From an uncultured Bdellovibrionales bacterium (GTDB taxonomy: Bacteria > Patescibacteriota > Minisyncoccia > Moranbacterales > UBA1568): a DNA stretch of 64,000 nt. Location of the stretch: contig CAZIBB010000001.1 in the NCBI GenBank assembly GCA_964537075.1, positions 19,072 to 83,071 of the forward strand, read 5' to 3'. Within the stretch, counting starts at the first letter, position 1; each line of letters starts with the position of its first letter. Below the pieces are notes generated by a model. That model did no database searches. It was not told the origin of the DNA and worked only from the letters and a program-made list of their open reading frames with translations. Positions 4,012 to 27,585 of this stretch are shown here, piece after piece. The position numbers and the translations under genes are program-made.

Positions 4012-4051
4012 TTTTGGAGGCTAAACCTCCATGGAGGTTTAGCCTCCAAAA
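4012..4051. repeat. REP-like perfect palindrome TTTTGGAGGCTAAACCTCCATGGAGGTTTAGCCTCCAAAA flanking the transposase 3' end
   Basis: The 32-nt core GGAGGCTAAACCTCC-ATGG-AGGTTTAGCCTCC is its own reverse complement. It abuts the transposase stop codon at 4052-4054. Confidence 0.9.
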
Positions 4052-4711
4052 TTATTCCATCAACAAAGCTCTTTCAATCTGCTTTCTTTCTAAAATTCCA
4101 ATTAGGGAACTCTCTGAAAAATCTTTGTATTCCTCTTGACTGCGGAATTGTCCAAGTACAATATTTTTTTCACAATATTCGCGCTTTGTTTTTCCGATAT
4201 ATTCATTCCAACTTGAACGAGTAAGAATATCATCTTCATATCGATGCACACGAAAATTCAGATTTACATACGCACTCAAGTGCAATAAATATTCATTCGT
4301 TTCAATATGAATTGCCTTGAATGTTCCCTGGAACAGCGAGCCGCTTCGTGTATACTTTTTATTGAAATACATCGTGTATCCTGTACCAAATCGCTGCATA
4401 AACTTCTCCACCCCCTTATCTGAAACCTGCCTAAGAATAAAATGGAAATGATTCGGATTAATGCAGTATGCAATAACCTCAACCAACGGCTCTTCCTTTT
4501 CTTCATCCTTTATAACTACCTTTCCAAAACTTTTTTCATGAGATTTTTTTTCATAAATACTCCCTATAGGATTGAGTGTATTAAATTCAACCATGCTCTG
4601 CAGAAACCTCTCTGCATCAGTCACATCTTCTATAATCATTCTCTTTTCCACTCCACGATTATAAATATGATATACCTCCTCATTTGCAAATATCACTTTT
4701 CTCATAAGCAT
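4052..4711 (-). CDS. REP-associated tyrosine transposase (RAYT; Y1 HUH, IS200-like Y1_Tnp family)
   Basis: N-terminal YHIYNRG, HUH motif NPNHFHFIL, and a GSLFQGTFKAIHIE block comparable to the GxLWQxRYY region of Y1 transposases. The ORF track starts at 4756, inside the palindrome; the likely true start is M at 4711 or 4705 (MLMRKV...). Confidence 0.75.
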   Translation of the reverse strand: MLMRKVIFANEEVYHIYNRGVEKRMIIEDVTDAERFLQSMVEFNTLNPIGSIYEKKSHEKSFGKVVIKDEEKEEPLVEVIAYCINPNHFHFILRQVSDKGVEKFMQRFGTGYTMYFNKKYTRSGSLFQGTFKAIHIETNEYLLHLSAYVNLNFRVHRYEDDILTRSSWNEYIGKTKREYCEKNIVLGQFRSQEEYKDFSESSLIGILERKQIERALLME

Positions 4712-4719
4712 TGACGTTA

Positions 4720-4756
4720 TTTGGAGGCTAAACCTCCATGGAGGTTTAGCCTCCAC
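4720..4756. repeat. REP-like palindrome, second copy, flanking the transposase 5' end
   Basis: TTTGGAGGCTAAACCTCCATGGAGGTTTAGCCTCC, identical core to 4012..4051. Confidence 0.9.
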
Positions 4757-5975: not shown

Positions 5976-6971
5976 TTAATTTTTTTGTTTTGCTCCGATA
6001 GTCACTTCATCCCCATCCTTGAGTCCAGATACGATCTCGATCACGCCTTCATCCCCTTCAAGACCGGTCGCTACTTCCATCTTTTCAAAATTATTTTCTC
6101 CACGCCGCACCTCGGCATAGGTGATGCCATCCTCTTTGAAAAGCGCGCGGAACGGTACGATCAGAACATTTTCCCGCTTAGCCGTCTCGATATCGATATT
6201 CGCCGTCATGCCCTCCTTGAGTCGGGTATCAGCATCACTCAAACGGAACTTCACCACATATGAGACCACACCCTGCAGCACCGTGGCTGCCGTATCGATA
6301 TCCGTCGCTTCCGCGGCGAATTTCTCGGAAGTCGAAAAGGCATCGAAGGTCACAATCGCCTTCATGCCGACCTTCACTTTCGCGATATCGGATTCCGGAA
6401 CCCGAGCCTCGATAATGAATTCCTGCGGTTTCGAGATGCGTGCCACTATTTTCCCTGCGGTGACCACCTCGCCCACGCGCGCATCCATCGAGACAACCTG
6501 GCCATCGATCGGGGCGTGGAGTATACCGTTTCGTATCTGAGTGATGAGTCCCGAAACGGCCTCTCTCGATTGTTCCGAGACGAGCTTCTTCGCCAGAATC
6601 GCCTCCGATGTCGAGGAGTGGGACTTTCGTACCGAAAGCTCGTTCGCCTCCGCGATACGCACCGCGAGGCGAGCTTCATTCAGCTGCGATTGGAGTATTG
6701 TCCGGTCGACTGACGCGAGAGGAGCGCCCACCGTGACCGTATCCCCTTCCTTCACATACACCTTATCGATCACGCCGAGACCCTGGAAGGAAAGATCTGA
6801 GTATGACACCGGTACGAGTTCTCCAGTCACGCTCACGGTCTCGATAATCTCCCCTTTCTTCACGGTCTCCGTCGGCACGATGACGACGTTCGTCTTGCTC
6901 CGATAATAGAAATACCCGCCGATAAGGACGATAACGAGAAAGACGATGATAATTTTCTTTTTAGTAAACAT
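5976..6971 (-). CDS. Efflux periplasmic adaptor / membrane fusion protein (HlyD/MacA family)
   Basis: 331 aa. N-terminal TM, biotinyl/lipoyl-like half-motifs, coiled-coil, beta-barrel. First gene of the efflux operon. Confidence 0.85.
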   Translation of the reverse strand: MFTKKKIIIVFLVIVLIGGYFYYRSKTNVVIVPTETVKKGEIIETVSVTGELVPVSYSDLSFQGLGVIDKVYVKEGDTVTVGAPLASVDRTILQSQLNEARLAVRIAEANELSVRKSHSSTSEAILAKKLVSEQSREAVSGLITQIRNGILHAPIDGQVVSMDARVGEVVTAGKIVARISKPQEFIIEARVPESDIAKVKVGMKAIVTFDAFSTSEKFAAEATDIDTAATVLQGVVSYVVKFRLSDADTRLKEGMTANIDIETAKRENVLIVPFRALFKEDGITYAEVRRGENNFEKMEVATGLEGDEGVIEIVSGLKDGDEVTIGAKQKN

Positions 6972-6972
6972 A

Positions 6973-7135
6973 GATTCGTATTAAAACACAATAATCAAAG
7001 CACAAAGACCAAACAAATCACAAAACACAGGAGCCAAAAAGCATCTTACACAAAGAGATTTGTTTGTGTTTTGAATTTTGTGTTTTGTTTGACATTTTGT
7101 GTTCTGGGTTTTGTGTTTTTTAAAACAAGTTTGAT
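6973..7135. repeat. CA/TG inverted repeat, copy 2 (core TGTTTTGTTTGACATTTTGTGTTCTGGGTTTTGTGTTTTTT)
   Basis: Same architecture as copy 1, 5' of the HlyD gene. Confidence 0.7.
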
Positions 7136-15496: not shown

Positions 15497-15690
15497 TCCA
15501 GTATGATCCTTCGGGGCTCCGCGCGAAAAGAATCGCCAGAAATTCGTGACACCCAAAAGGATAGGTGCTCCAACTGGAGGAAGTGAAACGCCTTTGGAGC
15601 ATCCATACGGCGTGTCACTGAATTTCTCGATTCTTGTCGCAGGAGAGAGTTTCTTTGGCATACTTTTCTTTGCGGACAAAGAAAAGTATG
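15497..15690. repeat. Structured about 190-nt element, copy A (candidate ncRNA or palindromic MITE)
   Basis: Matches the reverse complement of 27371..27585. It folds into a long interrupted helix (AAGAATCG/CGATTCTT, AGAAATTC/GAATTTCT, GTGACAC/GTGTCAC) plus a perfect 10-bp terminal hairpin CTTTTCTTTG-CGGA-CAAAGAAAAG. Confidence 0.6.
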
Positions 15691-24682: not shown

Positions 24683-25474
24683 CTATCGGAGCGCGACCAT
24701 CTTCTTGAATTCTACAGTAAATTCCGCGATCGCATCATTGACAATCGGATGAAATCTCTTTGTAATTCCCTTTTCCCGGACATAGAGCGACGAATCGAGC
24801 AGCGAATCCGGCGTTCCGGTATCGAACCATTCCCCCTTCATTTCCCGGACATCGAGCATTCCCCGTTCGAGATAATAATTATGTATTCCGGTGATCTCAA
24901 TTTCCCCGCGTTCCGACGGAGAGAGCTTCTTCGCCGCCTCCGACACCCGACCATCGAAAATATAGATACCAGGAATGGCGAAGTTGCTTTTCGGCACCAA
25001 TGGTTTTTCTTCGATGGAAACGACTTTCTTCTCCGCATCGAATTCCACGACGCCGAATCGCTTCGGATCCGAAACTTCTTTCGCGAATATCCGTCCGCCC
25101 TCTTCAAATGATCGGATGGCATCGGAGAAATCGTCTTCGAAAATATTATCCCCGAGCACCATGGTCGATGATCCGCCATCGAGAAAATCCTCCGCGAGGA
25201 TATAGGCGTCCGCCAAACCTCTCGGTTTCTTCTGCACGATAAATGATATGGATACGCCATGGTTCCGGAACATCGATCCGAGGAGATTCAGGAAATGTCC
25301 CGAATACTCCGGCGCGACGATGATGAGGATATCCTTGATCCCCGCCATGACAAGCGTATTCAACGGATAAAAAATCATCGGCCGATCATAGACTGGCAGG
25401 AGCTGCTTCGAAGTGACGGCGGTCGACGGCAGGAGCCGCGTCCCCGTTCCGCCCGCAAGTATTATTCCTTTCAT
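24683..25474 (-). CDS. rfbA: Glucose-1-phosphate thymidylyltransferase (RmlA-like sugar nucleotidyltransferase)
   Basis: MKGIILAGGTGTRLLPSTAVTSKQLLPVYDRPMIFYPL. Confidence 0.8.
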   Translation of the reverse strand: MKGIILAGGTGTRLLPSTAVTSKQLLPVYDRPMIFYPLNTLVMAGIKDILIIVAPEYSGHFLNLLGSMFRNHGVSISFIVQKKPRGLADAYILAEDFLDGGSSTMVLGDNIFEDDFSDAIRSFEEGGRIFAKEVSDPKRFGVVEFDAEKKVVSIEEKPLVPKSNFAIPGIYIFDGRVSEAAKKLSPSERGEIEITGIHNYYLERGMLDVREMKGEWFDTGTPDSLLDSSLYVREKGITKRFHPIVNDAIAEFTVEFKKMVALR

Positions 25475-25490
25475 AGTTTTTGATTATGCA

Positions 25491-25532
25491 TTTTTGGAGG
25501 TCGAACCTCCATGGAGGTTCGACCTCCAAAAA
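25491..25532. repeat. REP-like palindrome, third (orphan) copy, variant GGAGGTCGAACCTCC-ATGG-AGGTTCGACCTCC
   Basis: Same GGAGG...CCTCC-ATGG-GGAGG...CCTCC architecture as the copies flanking the transposase. The loop change CTAAA to TCGAA is mirrored symmetrically in the other half. Confidence 0.85.
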
Positions 25533-26774
25533 TTACTTATACAACGGAAACTGCTTGCATAACACTCGTATATCCTTACGCAACTTGTTACGTAACTTCG
25601 CATCGCCTTTATTCTTCCAGGCGGTATCGATGATACGGGCGATTTCCTTCACTTCACGCTCTTTCATCCCGCGTGTCGTGATCGCTGGAACGCCGATACG
25701 CACCCCACTCGGATCGAGCGGCCCGCGCGGATCATCCGGAATGACATTCTTATTGATGGTGATCCCCACTTCCTCCAATATATATTCCGCTTCCTTTCCA
25801 GTGAGGCCATAGCTCTTCACCGTATCGATCACGATCATATGATTCTCCGTTCCACCGAAGAGAATATACGCGCCGCCCTTATAGAGTTCCTTTTCGAGCA
25901 CCTTCGCATTTTTCAGTGTCTGTTTCGCGTACTTCCTGAACTCTGGTTTCAATGCCTCACCGAATGCCACCGCTTTGGCCGCCACGACGTGCATGTGTGG
26001 CCCTCCCTGCGTTCCCGGGAAAATAGCCTTGTCAATCGCCCTTGCAAATTCTTTCTTGCAGAGAATCATGCCTCCACGCGGTCCGCGCAGCGTCTTGTGC
26101 GTCGTCGCTGTCACGATATCGAAGTGCGGCACCGGACTCGGCAGCGCTTTCCCGGCGATGAGTCCCGCGATATGCGCCATGTCCATCATGGTCAATGCCT
26201 TCACCTTCTTTGCAATCGCGACGAACAACGCATAATCAATCTGCCGGGTATATGAAGAGAATCCCGCGAGCATGAGCTTCGGTTTTTCTTTTCTCGCAAG
26301 CGCTTCCAATTTTTTATAATCGATGCTGCCATCAGGTTCGGTTTTGTACCGAACGAAATTATACACCTTGGCCGGCAAGGTCACCGGATGACCATGCGTC
26401 AGATGTCCGCCATGAGAGAGATCCATGCCGAGCACCGTATCGCCCGGCTGAAGGAGTGCTGCATATACAGCGAGATTCGCCTGCGCCCCCGAATGCGCCT
26501 GCACATTCGCATGTTCCGCTCCGAACAATTTCTTCACGCGATCGAGCGCGAGCGTTTCCGCGACATCCGTCCATTCCTGTCCGCCATAGTACCTTTTCCC
26601 CGGATACCCTTCGGAATATTTGTTCGTGAAGACCGTCCCGAGCGTTTCCATCACCGCCTGCGAGACATAATTCTCCGACGCGATCATTTCCAATCCTTCT
26701 TCCTGCCGTTTTTCTTCGCCCATCACCGCGGCATACACCGCCTTGTCCGCCTTCTTCAGAATATCATGCTTCAT
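25533..26774 (-). CDS. glyA: Serine hydroxymethyltransferase
   Basis: PLP site [12 protein letters not shown] and the GHLTHGH block; 413 aa. Confidence 0.9.
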
Positions 26775-27370: not shown

Positions 27371-27585
27371 TCTTTCATACTTTTCTTTGTCCGCAAAGAA
27401 AAGTAGACAAAAGAAACTCTCTCCTGCGAACAAATCGATAAATTCTTCGACACCCTTATGGAAGCCTCCAAAGGCGCTTCACTTCCTCCAGTTGGAGCTT
27501 CTGTCCTTTTTGGGTGTCGAGAATTTCTAGCGATTCTTTTCGCGCGGAGCCCACGCAGGACCAAGTTTAGAGAAAATAATAAAGG
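27371..27585. repeat. Structured about 190-nt element, copy B (inverted orientation relative to copy A)
   Basis: Reverse complement aligns with 15497..15690. Helix positions carry compensatory changes: GTGACAC/GTGTCAC in A against TCGACAC/GTGTCGA in B. Confidence 0.6.

Follow-up and report, generated by a model that had tools for sequence, protein, structure and literature searches.

A perfect inverted doublet of REP-like hairpins between glyA and an rmlA-like gene of a Patescibacteria genome, and its relatives near RAYT-type genes

The glyA-rmlA palindrome and its sister copies

We analyzed a stretch of 64,000 nucleotides from an uncultured member of the Patescibacteria (GenBank assembly GCA_964537075.1, contig CAZIBB010000001.1, positions 19,072 to 83,071), hereafter the window, which carries a perfect palindrome, named copy 3, in the spacer between glyA (SHMT) and an rmlA-like gene. 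Two sister palindromes, copies 1 and 2, border a gene of the RAYT type (REP-associated tyrosine transposase, where REP stands for repetitive extragenic palindrome). The coordinates of all features are collected in Table 1; loci of relatives are designated by L numbers. Copy 3 is 44 nt long and is composed of two 22-nt arms, 100% complementary and with no spacer between them. It reads ATTTTT-GGAGGTCGAACCTCC-AT-GGAGGTTCGACCTCC-AAAAAT, with GGAGGTCGAACCTCC-AT-GGAGGTTCGACCTCC spanning positions 25496-25527, and has the core TGGAGG-TCGAA-CCTCCA / TGGAGG-TTCGA-CCTCCA. A preliminary description of the window had reported here a perfect palindrome with mirrored inner pentamers at 25491-25532: the sequence is as described, and the perfect complementarity is slightly wider, covering 25490-25533. 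The location at the 3' end of glyA, between glyA and rmlA, is also borne out, the downstream gene being rmlA-like. glyA ends in a TAA stop codon (25535-25533, minus strand) that overlaps the palindrome by 1 nt, its third base being the palindrome's last, and the ATG start codon of the rmlA-like gene lies 15 nt past the palindrome end on the minus strand. The 90%-identity cluster of GlyA includes a protein named as Patescibacteria.

The frame GGAGG-N5-CCTCC-N4-AGG-N5-CCTCC matches the window at exactly three sites, 4016-4047, 4723-4754, and 25496-25527, in agreement with the earlier claim that copy 3 is a REP-like palindrome and the third of its kind in the window. The three-copy frame was matched in none of 100 dinucleotide-preserving shuffles of the window, and no additional single unit was detected in the window with two mismatches tolerated. 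All three copies are intergenic and are perfect inverted doublets of the 17-nt unit TGGAGG-N5-CCTCCA, with identical stems and centre. The inner pentamers are CTAAA/TTTAG in copies 1 and 2 and TCGAA/TTCGA in copy 3, which amounts to three differences per half (CTAAA vs TCGAA, TTTAG vs TTCGA) at exact mirror positions. As the stem of the unit is itself palindromic, its orientation resides in the 5-nt loop only, and an inverted pair therefore necessarily has mirrored loops. On their 5' side the window copies are flanked by TTTT, ATTT, or ATTTTT, the relatives mostly by ACTT.

As single-stranded DNA (ssDNA), copy 3 is predicted to form either one long hairpin (-22.5 kcal/mol, z = -11.5) or two mini-hairpins (~-6 kcal/mol each); as RNA, its folding energy is -37.2 kcal/mol (z = -7.0). 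An Rfam search of copy 3 gave only generic matches to miRNA-precursor hairpins, far below threshold. The glyA-rmlA spacer was recovered in two independent assemblies and is therefore real and no assembly artefact. One of them, a MEGAHIT contig built from separate data (ENA ERZ27247837), contains copy 3 in full; the other, a Logan unitig of ERR3094292 (L020:1347-1377), terminates inside the palindrome. Perfect palindromes of this size interrupt de Bruijn graph assemblies, as this unitig illustrates, and such breakage may explain why many RAYT homologues are found on contigs of ~1 kb.

Presence or absence of the palindrome varies between orthologous spacers. In three relatives whose GlyA is ~91% identical no palindrome is present: the glyA-rmlA spacer is 12 nt long (TTCGTAGATCTT) in L035 and L036, and unrelated and AT-rich in L037. 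The palindrome was therefore gained in the lineage of the window.

Like intrinsic (bidirectional) terminators, copy 3 is a GC-containing hairpin directly downstream of a gene. Unlike them, it shows on both strands the order T-run, hairpin, A-run, the reverse of what termination needs, so that no U-tract follows (the 3' sequence on the glyA strand is AAAAAUGC); it is not a canonical intrinsic terminator, and a terminator scan did not call it. Judged from the sequence, copy 3 probably has a passive effect: the glyA-rmlA transcript would contain, from the stop codon onward, a hairpin of great stability. REPs of Escherichia coli stabilise upstream mRNA. By analogy, the copy 3 hairpin could shield the upstream mRNA from 3' exonucleases and, so near the stop codon, it could hinder termination.

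The palindrome centre, CCATGG, also provides the ATG of a 13-codon open reading frame (ORF) (MEVRPPKMHNQKL; 25473-25514, minus strand), the TGA stop codon of which overlaps the rmlA start codon (ATGA). A role as leader peptide was considered for this ORF, which is probably incidental since its ATG is simply the centre of the palindrome.

A RAYT-type gene and the hairpins that accompany its homologues

The gene between copies 1 and 2 is the one RAYT copy in the window. Its product matches the Pfam family Y1_Tnp (PF01797) with 31.2 bits, for a cut-off of 23, and the NCBIfam RAYT equivalog NF047646 with 24.7 bits, well under the cut-off of 80. The HUH motif (H86-x-H88) and Y146 are invariant across an alignment of 30 homologues. 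Sequence searches of the PDB with phmmer and with a profile found no significant match to the protein. Its AlphaFold model, with a predicted local distance difference test (pLDDT) score of 84.9, has as top Foldseek match in the PDB the complex of the E. coli RAYT with a REP hairpin (4ER8_A, E 6e-5), followed by the TnpA structures of IS608, ISDra2, and IS200. The link to a RAYT made in the preliminary description is thus upheld, as copies 1 and 2 border a Y1/HUH gene with 4ER8 as best structural match, and we assign the protein to a putative divergent RAYT lineage. The search for homologues gave 2627 matches, whose source names, where given, are Patescibacteria, Moranbacteria, or Giovannonibacteria; JGI labels several of them 'RayT'.

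The closest homologue with genomic context, in L022, is 66% identical and syntenic, lying between ABC ATPase and MacB-type permease genes. With an orthologue at the syntenic position, the window RAYT therefore seems to behave as a vertically inherited resident, as is typical of RAYTs (PMC5581495). The RAYT frame remains open upstream through copy 2 up to a GTG at 4756 (MEAKPPWRFSLQITSMLMRKV..., window 4706-4756, minus strand), which puts copy 2 in frame with the gene; the start chosen by gene callers is MRKV (4705).

The repeat unit of the family is a mini-hairpin of 17-23 nt, the relatives having 23-nt units with stems of 9-10 bp. The element that recurs near RAYT homologues is the single hairpin (A)CTTGGAGG-N5-CCTCCAAG(T): hairpins adjoin RAYT homologues in L022, L023, L026, L027/L029, and L032, and doublets do so in L027/L029, L055, L057, L090, and L115. 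The RAYT gene of L022 has the loop TTTAA upstream and TCGAA downstream, the latter being the same unit and loop as in the left unit of copy 3. Seven units are found within 9.4 kb in L023, in both orientations and with the loops CGAAA, CGAGA, and CTAAA, while in L027/L029 the stem is TTGGAGACT/AGTCTCCAA and a doublet lies downstream of the RAYT gene. The stems co-vary between genomes, with a compensated TTAGAGG/CCTCTAA in L026 and GGAGAC/GTCTCC in L027. Mimicry of Shine-Dalgarno and anti-Shine-Dalgarno sequences by GGAGG/CCTCC was considered and rejected, relatives having AGAGG/CCTCT and GGAGAC/GTCTCC stems.

Most RAYT homologues contain, in addition, a REP unit in frame within their own ORF, at residues ~56-66, with the consensus peptide LGGxxSK; in L055 and L057 a full doublet is found there. 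This internal REP tracks the stem and loop of the REPs that flank the gene in the same genome: the peptide is LRGSTSK with AGAGG stems and LGDLVSK with GGAGAC stems. In the AlphaFold model the LGGxxSK region forms a loop with predicted disorder (pLDDT <50 at residues 52-67). Either a master-copy role or a self-regulatory one is conceivable for the internal REP.

Mirrored doublets in metagenomes and in genes

The JGI metagenomes were scanned for two units 0-30 nt apart, with stems fixed and loops free, which gave at least 120 loci and at least 127 unit pairs; the counts on this set, here and below, are among the matches listed. They comprise 98 mirrored, 21 direct, and 8 other pairs (127 in all), the direct pairs being mostly long-gap, high-GC coding repeats. 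Altogether, 267 units were counted over the 756 kb of contigs sampled from the metagenomes. With a gap of ≤3 nt, 72 of 78 doublets are exactly mirrored, in 15 loop variants, whereas random pairing of the same loop pool would mirror 7.2%. Among the exceptions are three doublets that depart from exact mirroring by one mismatch and two that combine a pair of known variants as chimeras (L075, L135). In an alignment of 81 sequences, the loop-loop helix is 97.3% paired, and at each of the five loop pairs both partners are changed in 29-49 sequences. Nearly all of the pairing is Watson-Crick, with two G-U cells only (~1% wobble). None of 500 shuffles matched the observed covariation score, and sliding the 3' partner by one column lowers the pairing of the whole structure from 87.7% to 49-50%. 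The preliminary description had proposed to examine covariation between the halves over many copies: the outcome is strongly positive, and the changes in the two halves are correlated.

Loops are homogeneous within contigs: separate elements on one contig have their loop in common in 18 of 25 pairs, against 7% expected. Contigs with a second loop variant are a minority (L091, L096, L134, L149), and the window is likewise one of them. TCGAA/TTCGA is among the commonest variants (10 of the 72 mirrored doublets) and, in L022, the closest relative found, occurs within the syntenic RAYT as well as downstream of it; CTAAA is found elsewhere in L023 and L081. Because TCGAA is widespread and present at the L022 RAYT, copy 3 belongs to a different loop subfamily from copies 1 and 2, one that is separate, widespread and, if anything, probably older than the CTAAA subfamily. 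The earlier proposal that CTAAA became TCGAA in copy 3 is accordingly unsupported.

Long ORFs contain 61 of the 72 mirrored doublets (85%), vs 83% for random positions. The preliminary description had invoked typical REP placement between genes, an argument that fails for the family as a whole given this share of in-gene relatives. The doublets within ORFs are nearly all read in one frame, as ..LE[VA]xPPxGGx[TA]SK.. or ..GGSTSIMEVEPP.., and are hosted by the genes of TopA (four loci), M1 aminopeptidase (pepN), PriA, ArgRS (argS), and PurL. They add inserts of 12-14 residues to annotated essential proteins.

Comparison of orthologous sites in topA and pepN reveals that loops and centre differ as mirrored sets between flanks that are 79-88% identical. 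At the identical topA position of L049, L148, and L085, the loops are TTCTT/AAGAA, TCTTG/CAAGA, and TTGAA/TTCAA, respectively, for a protein identity of 64-84%. The flanks of the pepN doublets of L142 and L114 are 88% identical, yet six of the ten loop positions differ, all of them mirrored, and the 2-nt centre is inverted (CT vs AG). Finally, L027:10644-10688 and L029:3649-3693 accompany the same RAYT protein and have the single-base loops of their doublet swapped (a..t vs t..a) around an unchanged central t; this is an isomer switch beyond simple inversion of the whole palindrome.

Two other collections were scanned. Among the GTDB species representatives, a search for the doublet with a free 2-nt centre gave 18 loci, none of the window's type: 13 of the 18 are unrelated high-GC tandem coding repeats, and the other five (L001, L003, L009, L011, and L014) are single palindromes with no RAYT within 8 kb. 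A scan of the JGI metagenomes for the exact CCATGG-centred doublet gave no match, and the zero-spacer form of the doublet appears private to the lineage of the window. In IMG/VR, the single unit CTTGGAGG-N5-CCTCCAAG was detected in five contigs of the viral collection (L158-L162), which could be chance matches or misclassified Patescibacteria DNA.

Table 1. Positions of the palindromes, units, and genes in the window and of in-gene elements in relatives
Feature	Positions	Strand	Remarks
Copy 3 doublet, ATTTTT-[doublet]-AAAAAT	25490..25533	none	occupies most of the 58-nt glyA-rmlA spacer
Left REP unit, TGGAGG-TCGAA-CCTCCA	25495..25511	none	mini-hairpin, 7-bp stem and 3-nt loop; -6.0 kcal/mol alone as ssDNA
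Right REP unit, TGGAGG-TTCGA-CCTCCA	25512..25528	none	exact reverse complement of left unit; -5.9 kcal/mol as ssDNA
Copy 1, loops CTAAA/TTTAG	4012..4051	none	40-nt perfect palindrome, directly after RAYT stop codon
Copy 2, loops CTAAA/TTTAG	4722..4755	none	34-nt perfect palindrome, 17 nt upstream of RAYT start codon
RAYT-like HUH/Y1 transposase gene	4052..4705	-	217 aa; between copies 1 and 2
glyA (SHMT)	25533..26774	-	context; Pfam 1e-151
rmlA-like sugar-phosphate nucleotidyltransferase gene	24683..25474	-	context; TIGR01207, 290 bits, below cut-off of 360
Internal REP in RAYT ORFs	L022:7826-7848; L023:5066-5086; L026 ~520-560; L027:10170-10188		
Internal REP in RAYT gene of L032	inside gene 10001-10678		residues ~58-66
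Full doublet inside RAYT ORF	L055:5579-5615; L057:7909-7945		
topA doublets	L049:8996-9031; L148:7331-7366; L085:2628-2663		identical position
topA doublet	L129:720-755		other site
pepN doublets	L142:5787-5822; L114:2391-2426		
priA doublets	L119:7805-7840; L070:2465-2501		
argS doublet	L096:1448-1483		
purL doublet	L099:3634-3669		

Templated copying, alternative explanations, and known systems

We consider it likely that copy 3 is a REPIN-like, RAYT-linked TCGAA doublet gained in the lineage of the window, the halves of which mirror each other through templated copying at the DNA level and not through compensated point mutation. Copy 3 would be an inverted, back-to-back pair of 17-nt REP units, each forming a small hairpin in ssDNA. 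The family would be tied to a Patescibacteria-specific lineage of hairpin-recognising RAYT (HUH/Y1) transposases, one gene of which lies 21 kb away. Formation, spread, and overwriting of its doublets would all proceed by inverted copying of one unit, hence the mirrored halves. We see two candidate processes, which may act together: ssDNA hairpins could be mobilised or undergo strand exchange through the RAYT, and template switching within a strand could homogenise the arms. Sequence symmetry, association with the RAYT, covariation, presence or absence at orthologous sites, and homogeneity within contigs are observed directly; that the RAYT acts catalytically on these hairpins, how copying proceeds in detail, and whether expression is affected are matters of inference. 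A templated process that acts on the whole cassette is favoured because the cassette changes fast relative to its surroundings, mirroring is near-strictly Watson-Crick, and intermediates are scarce.

It is unlikely that copy 3 instead derives from a CTAAA doublet through single-base changes, every one of which was then compensated because selection favoured a stable hairpin, in RNA or in DNA. Such a course would agree with the identical stems and centre of the three copies, with the great stability of the long hairpin, and with the compensatory change reported in REPIN hairpins (PMC3116915). Nevertheless, TCGAA is a pre-existing and widespread loop that is found at the syntenic RAYT of L022 too, and intermediates are nearly absent, being limited to the two G-U cells and the three one-mismatch doublets in 78. 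In pepN, moreover, the change of six of ten loop positions and of the centre between flanks that are 88% identical points to replacement, not to gradual drift. The preliminary description had put forward both templating and structural selection as mechanisms: templating is the better fit, while near-strict Watson-Crick pairing, rare intermediates, and a cassette that changes faster than its flanks speak against structural selection. Somewhat less probable again is a terminator or mRNA-stabilising hairpin that evolved locally between glyA and rmlA with no link to transposition. The mRNA stabilisation known from E. coli REPs, the location right behind a stop codon, between two co-directional genes, the folding energy of the RNA hairpin (-37 kcal/mol), and the A-tract/T-tract flanks of some related doublets, which resemble those of bidirectional terminators, would all suit this explanation. 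It leaves aside that neither strand has a U-tract and that the terminator scan made no call, that identical stems border the RAYT gene 21 kb away, that members of the family lie mainly in ORFs, and that close relatives have a 12-nt spacer.

A palindromic operator for a dimeric DNA-binding protein would explain the perfect two-fold symmetry, flanks included, but we regard it as very improbable: the inner 5 nt of the half-sites vary freely between copies and are yet mirrored, in-frame copies are found inside topA, pepN, priA, and the RAYT gene, and no regulator gene is associated. As to a fold-back chimera produced by assembly, the Logan unitig that ends within the palindrome is what could suggest it. 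The same full sequence in the independent MEGAHIT contig and in the window record, the two sister copies in the window, and ~100 relatives in unrelated metagenomes make it scarcely conceivable.

Several points weigh against a RAYT-linked, templated doublet. The exact zero-spacer, CCATGG-centred doublet is absent from the GTDB species representatives and the JGI metagenomes scanned, and the GTAG or CGTC tetranucleotide at the hairpin foot is absent in the window copies and relatives. Only three doublets are found in ~70 kb of this genome. At the glyA-rmlA site, the divergence of the spacer is too great to define insertion boundaries or a target site. The window RAYT is bordered by CTAAA doublets, not TCGAA ones, and has lost the internal REP of most homologues (SFGKVVIK, with a degenerate equivalent at ~4500-4530), so the enzyme that placed copy 3 may be different from the window RAYT, or the window RAYT may be inactive. 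As regards covariation, the stems of the metagenome doublets were preset by the search pattern, the free evidence being restricted to loops, centre, and flanks, and copies in one loop variant may share ancestry, which would bring the number of independent events nearer to 15 than to 72.

A broader scenario is more tentative, and we hold it to be rather doubtful. It would have a distinct Patescibacteria RAYT lineage that carries an in-frame 'master' REP in its own ORF and whose doublets are written in frame into topA, pepN, priA, argS, and purL at conserved sites, to be periodically overwritten in concert; the mirroring in the window would then be the trace of RAYT-driven templated cassette replacement, not of structural selection.

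Among known systems, the REPIN-RAYT systems of Pseudomonas and Enterobacteria (Bertels & Rainey 2011, PMC3116915; Bertels et al. 2017, PMC5581495) are closest in layout. REPINs are inverted REP doublets that pair into one long hairpin, in which compensatory changes are common and which can adopt alternative hairpin and 'clover' folds (PMC3116915); mirrored changes are found here too, and the same choice of folds is predicted. As in these systems, the RAYT is bordered by repeats and holds the same chromosomal position in a relative (66% identical), and variants are specific to a genome. The window family differs by its units of 17-23 nt and its spacer of 0-3 nt, for tens of nt in Pseudomonas, by the lack of GTAG, by its Patescibacteria host, by its inclusion of coding regions, by the copy inside the RAYT ORF, and by a RAYT protein far under the NCBIfam RAYT cut-off (24.7 vs 80 bits).

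A GTAG or CGTC tag at the hairpin foot is described as a REP feature (PMC8266576, PMC3733652). The tagged REPs, including Rickettsia RPE-4/6 (Di Nocera et al. 2013, PMC3733652), are likewise short stem-loops arranged mainly as inverted dimers, with termini touching stop codons and with some in-frame copies in genes, notably those of replication and repair. Intragenic REP dimers have been reported in Opitutus terrae and as Rickettsia RPE-4/6, often in replication/repair genes (PMC3733652), and the in-gene location is therefore not new in kind. The window family has no tag and, within genes, is almost always read in one frame (LE-x-x-PP-x-GG-x-x-SK); its pairing is near-strict Watson-Crick, in contrast to frequent G-T pairing in that survey, and 85% of its sampled doublets are intragenic, where such copies were a minority. 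The window protein resembles IS200/IS605 TnpA and the TnpA-REP of E. coli (4ER8, 2VJV; Corneloup et al. 2021, PMC8266576) in its predicted fold and in having a C-terminal catalytic Tyr besides the HUH motif; it is only ~11-13% identical to them and has an extra C-terminal helical region. Group 3 REPs (PMC8266576) are also short perfect palindromes whose loop sequence sets orientation and recognition. Template switching homogenises the arms of inverted repeats and inverts their spacers (PMC8604942, PMC7202029). Such quasipalindrome mutagenesis produces exact arm complementarity and spacer or loop inversion without selection, and would fit both the strict Watson-Crick mirroring and the swapped loop isomers of L027/L029; as a general replication error, it leaves, on its own, the RAYT association and the sharing of loops within genomes unexplained. 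Taken feature by feature, the window family has most of what characterises REPIN-RAYT systems, namely a hairpin unit, an inverted doublet, a RAYT between repeats, presence/absence polymorphism, and genome-specific variants, and misses two REP features, the GTAG/CGTC tag and an extragenic location across the family.

To our knowledge, REP and REPIN-RAYT systems have been characterised almost wholly in Proteobacteria and a few other classes, and a literature search found no paper tying RAYT or REP elements to Patescibacteria (candidate phyla radiation, CPR). The family described here is very compact, with 17-nt units, a spacer of 0-3 nt, and the 5-nt loop as sole asymmetric information, which makes the cause of the identity between REPIN halves directly testable. 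Orthologous in-gene copies allow replacement events to be counted against a protein-coding clock, and the REP copy in the RAYT ORF suggests a source-template relationship or self-regulation. The perfect palindromes of the family also break short-read assemblies of CPR genomes.

The window contains two further kinds of inverted repeats. A second, unrelated hairpin family, (CA)TACTTTTCTTTG-NNNN-CAAAGAAAAGTA(TG), is present at 15659-15690 and 27378-27405, where the loops CGGA/TCCG are reverse-complementary and thus represent one element in its two orientations; a relative also has a similar hairpin (L037:2615-2638). Lastly, a long imperfect inverted repeat at 6988-7091, with arms of 27-32 nt that are 72-74% complementary, overlaps the minus-strand ORF 5976-6971 at its 5' end, together with the adjoining upstream region; one arm is rich in A and C (ACAAAGACCAAACAAATCACAAAACACA) and the other, its complement, in G and T.
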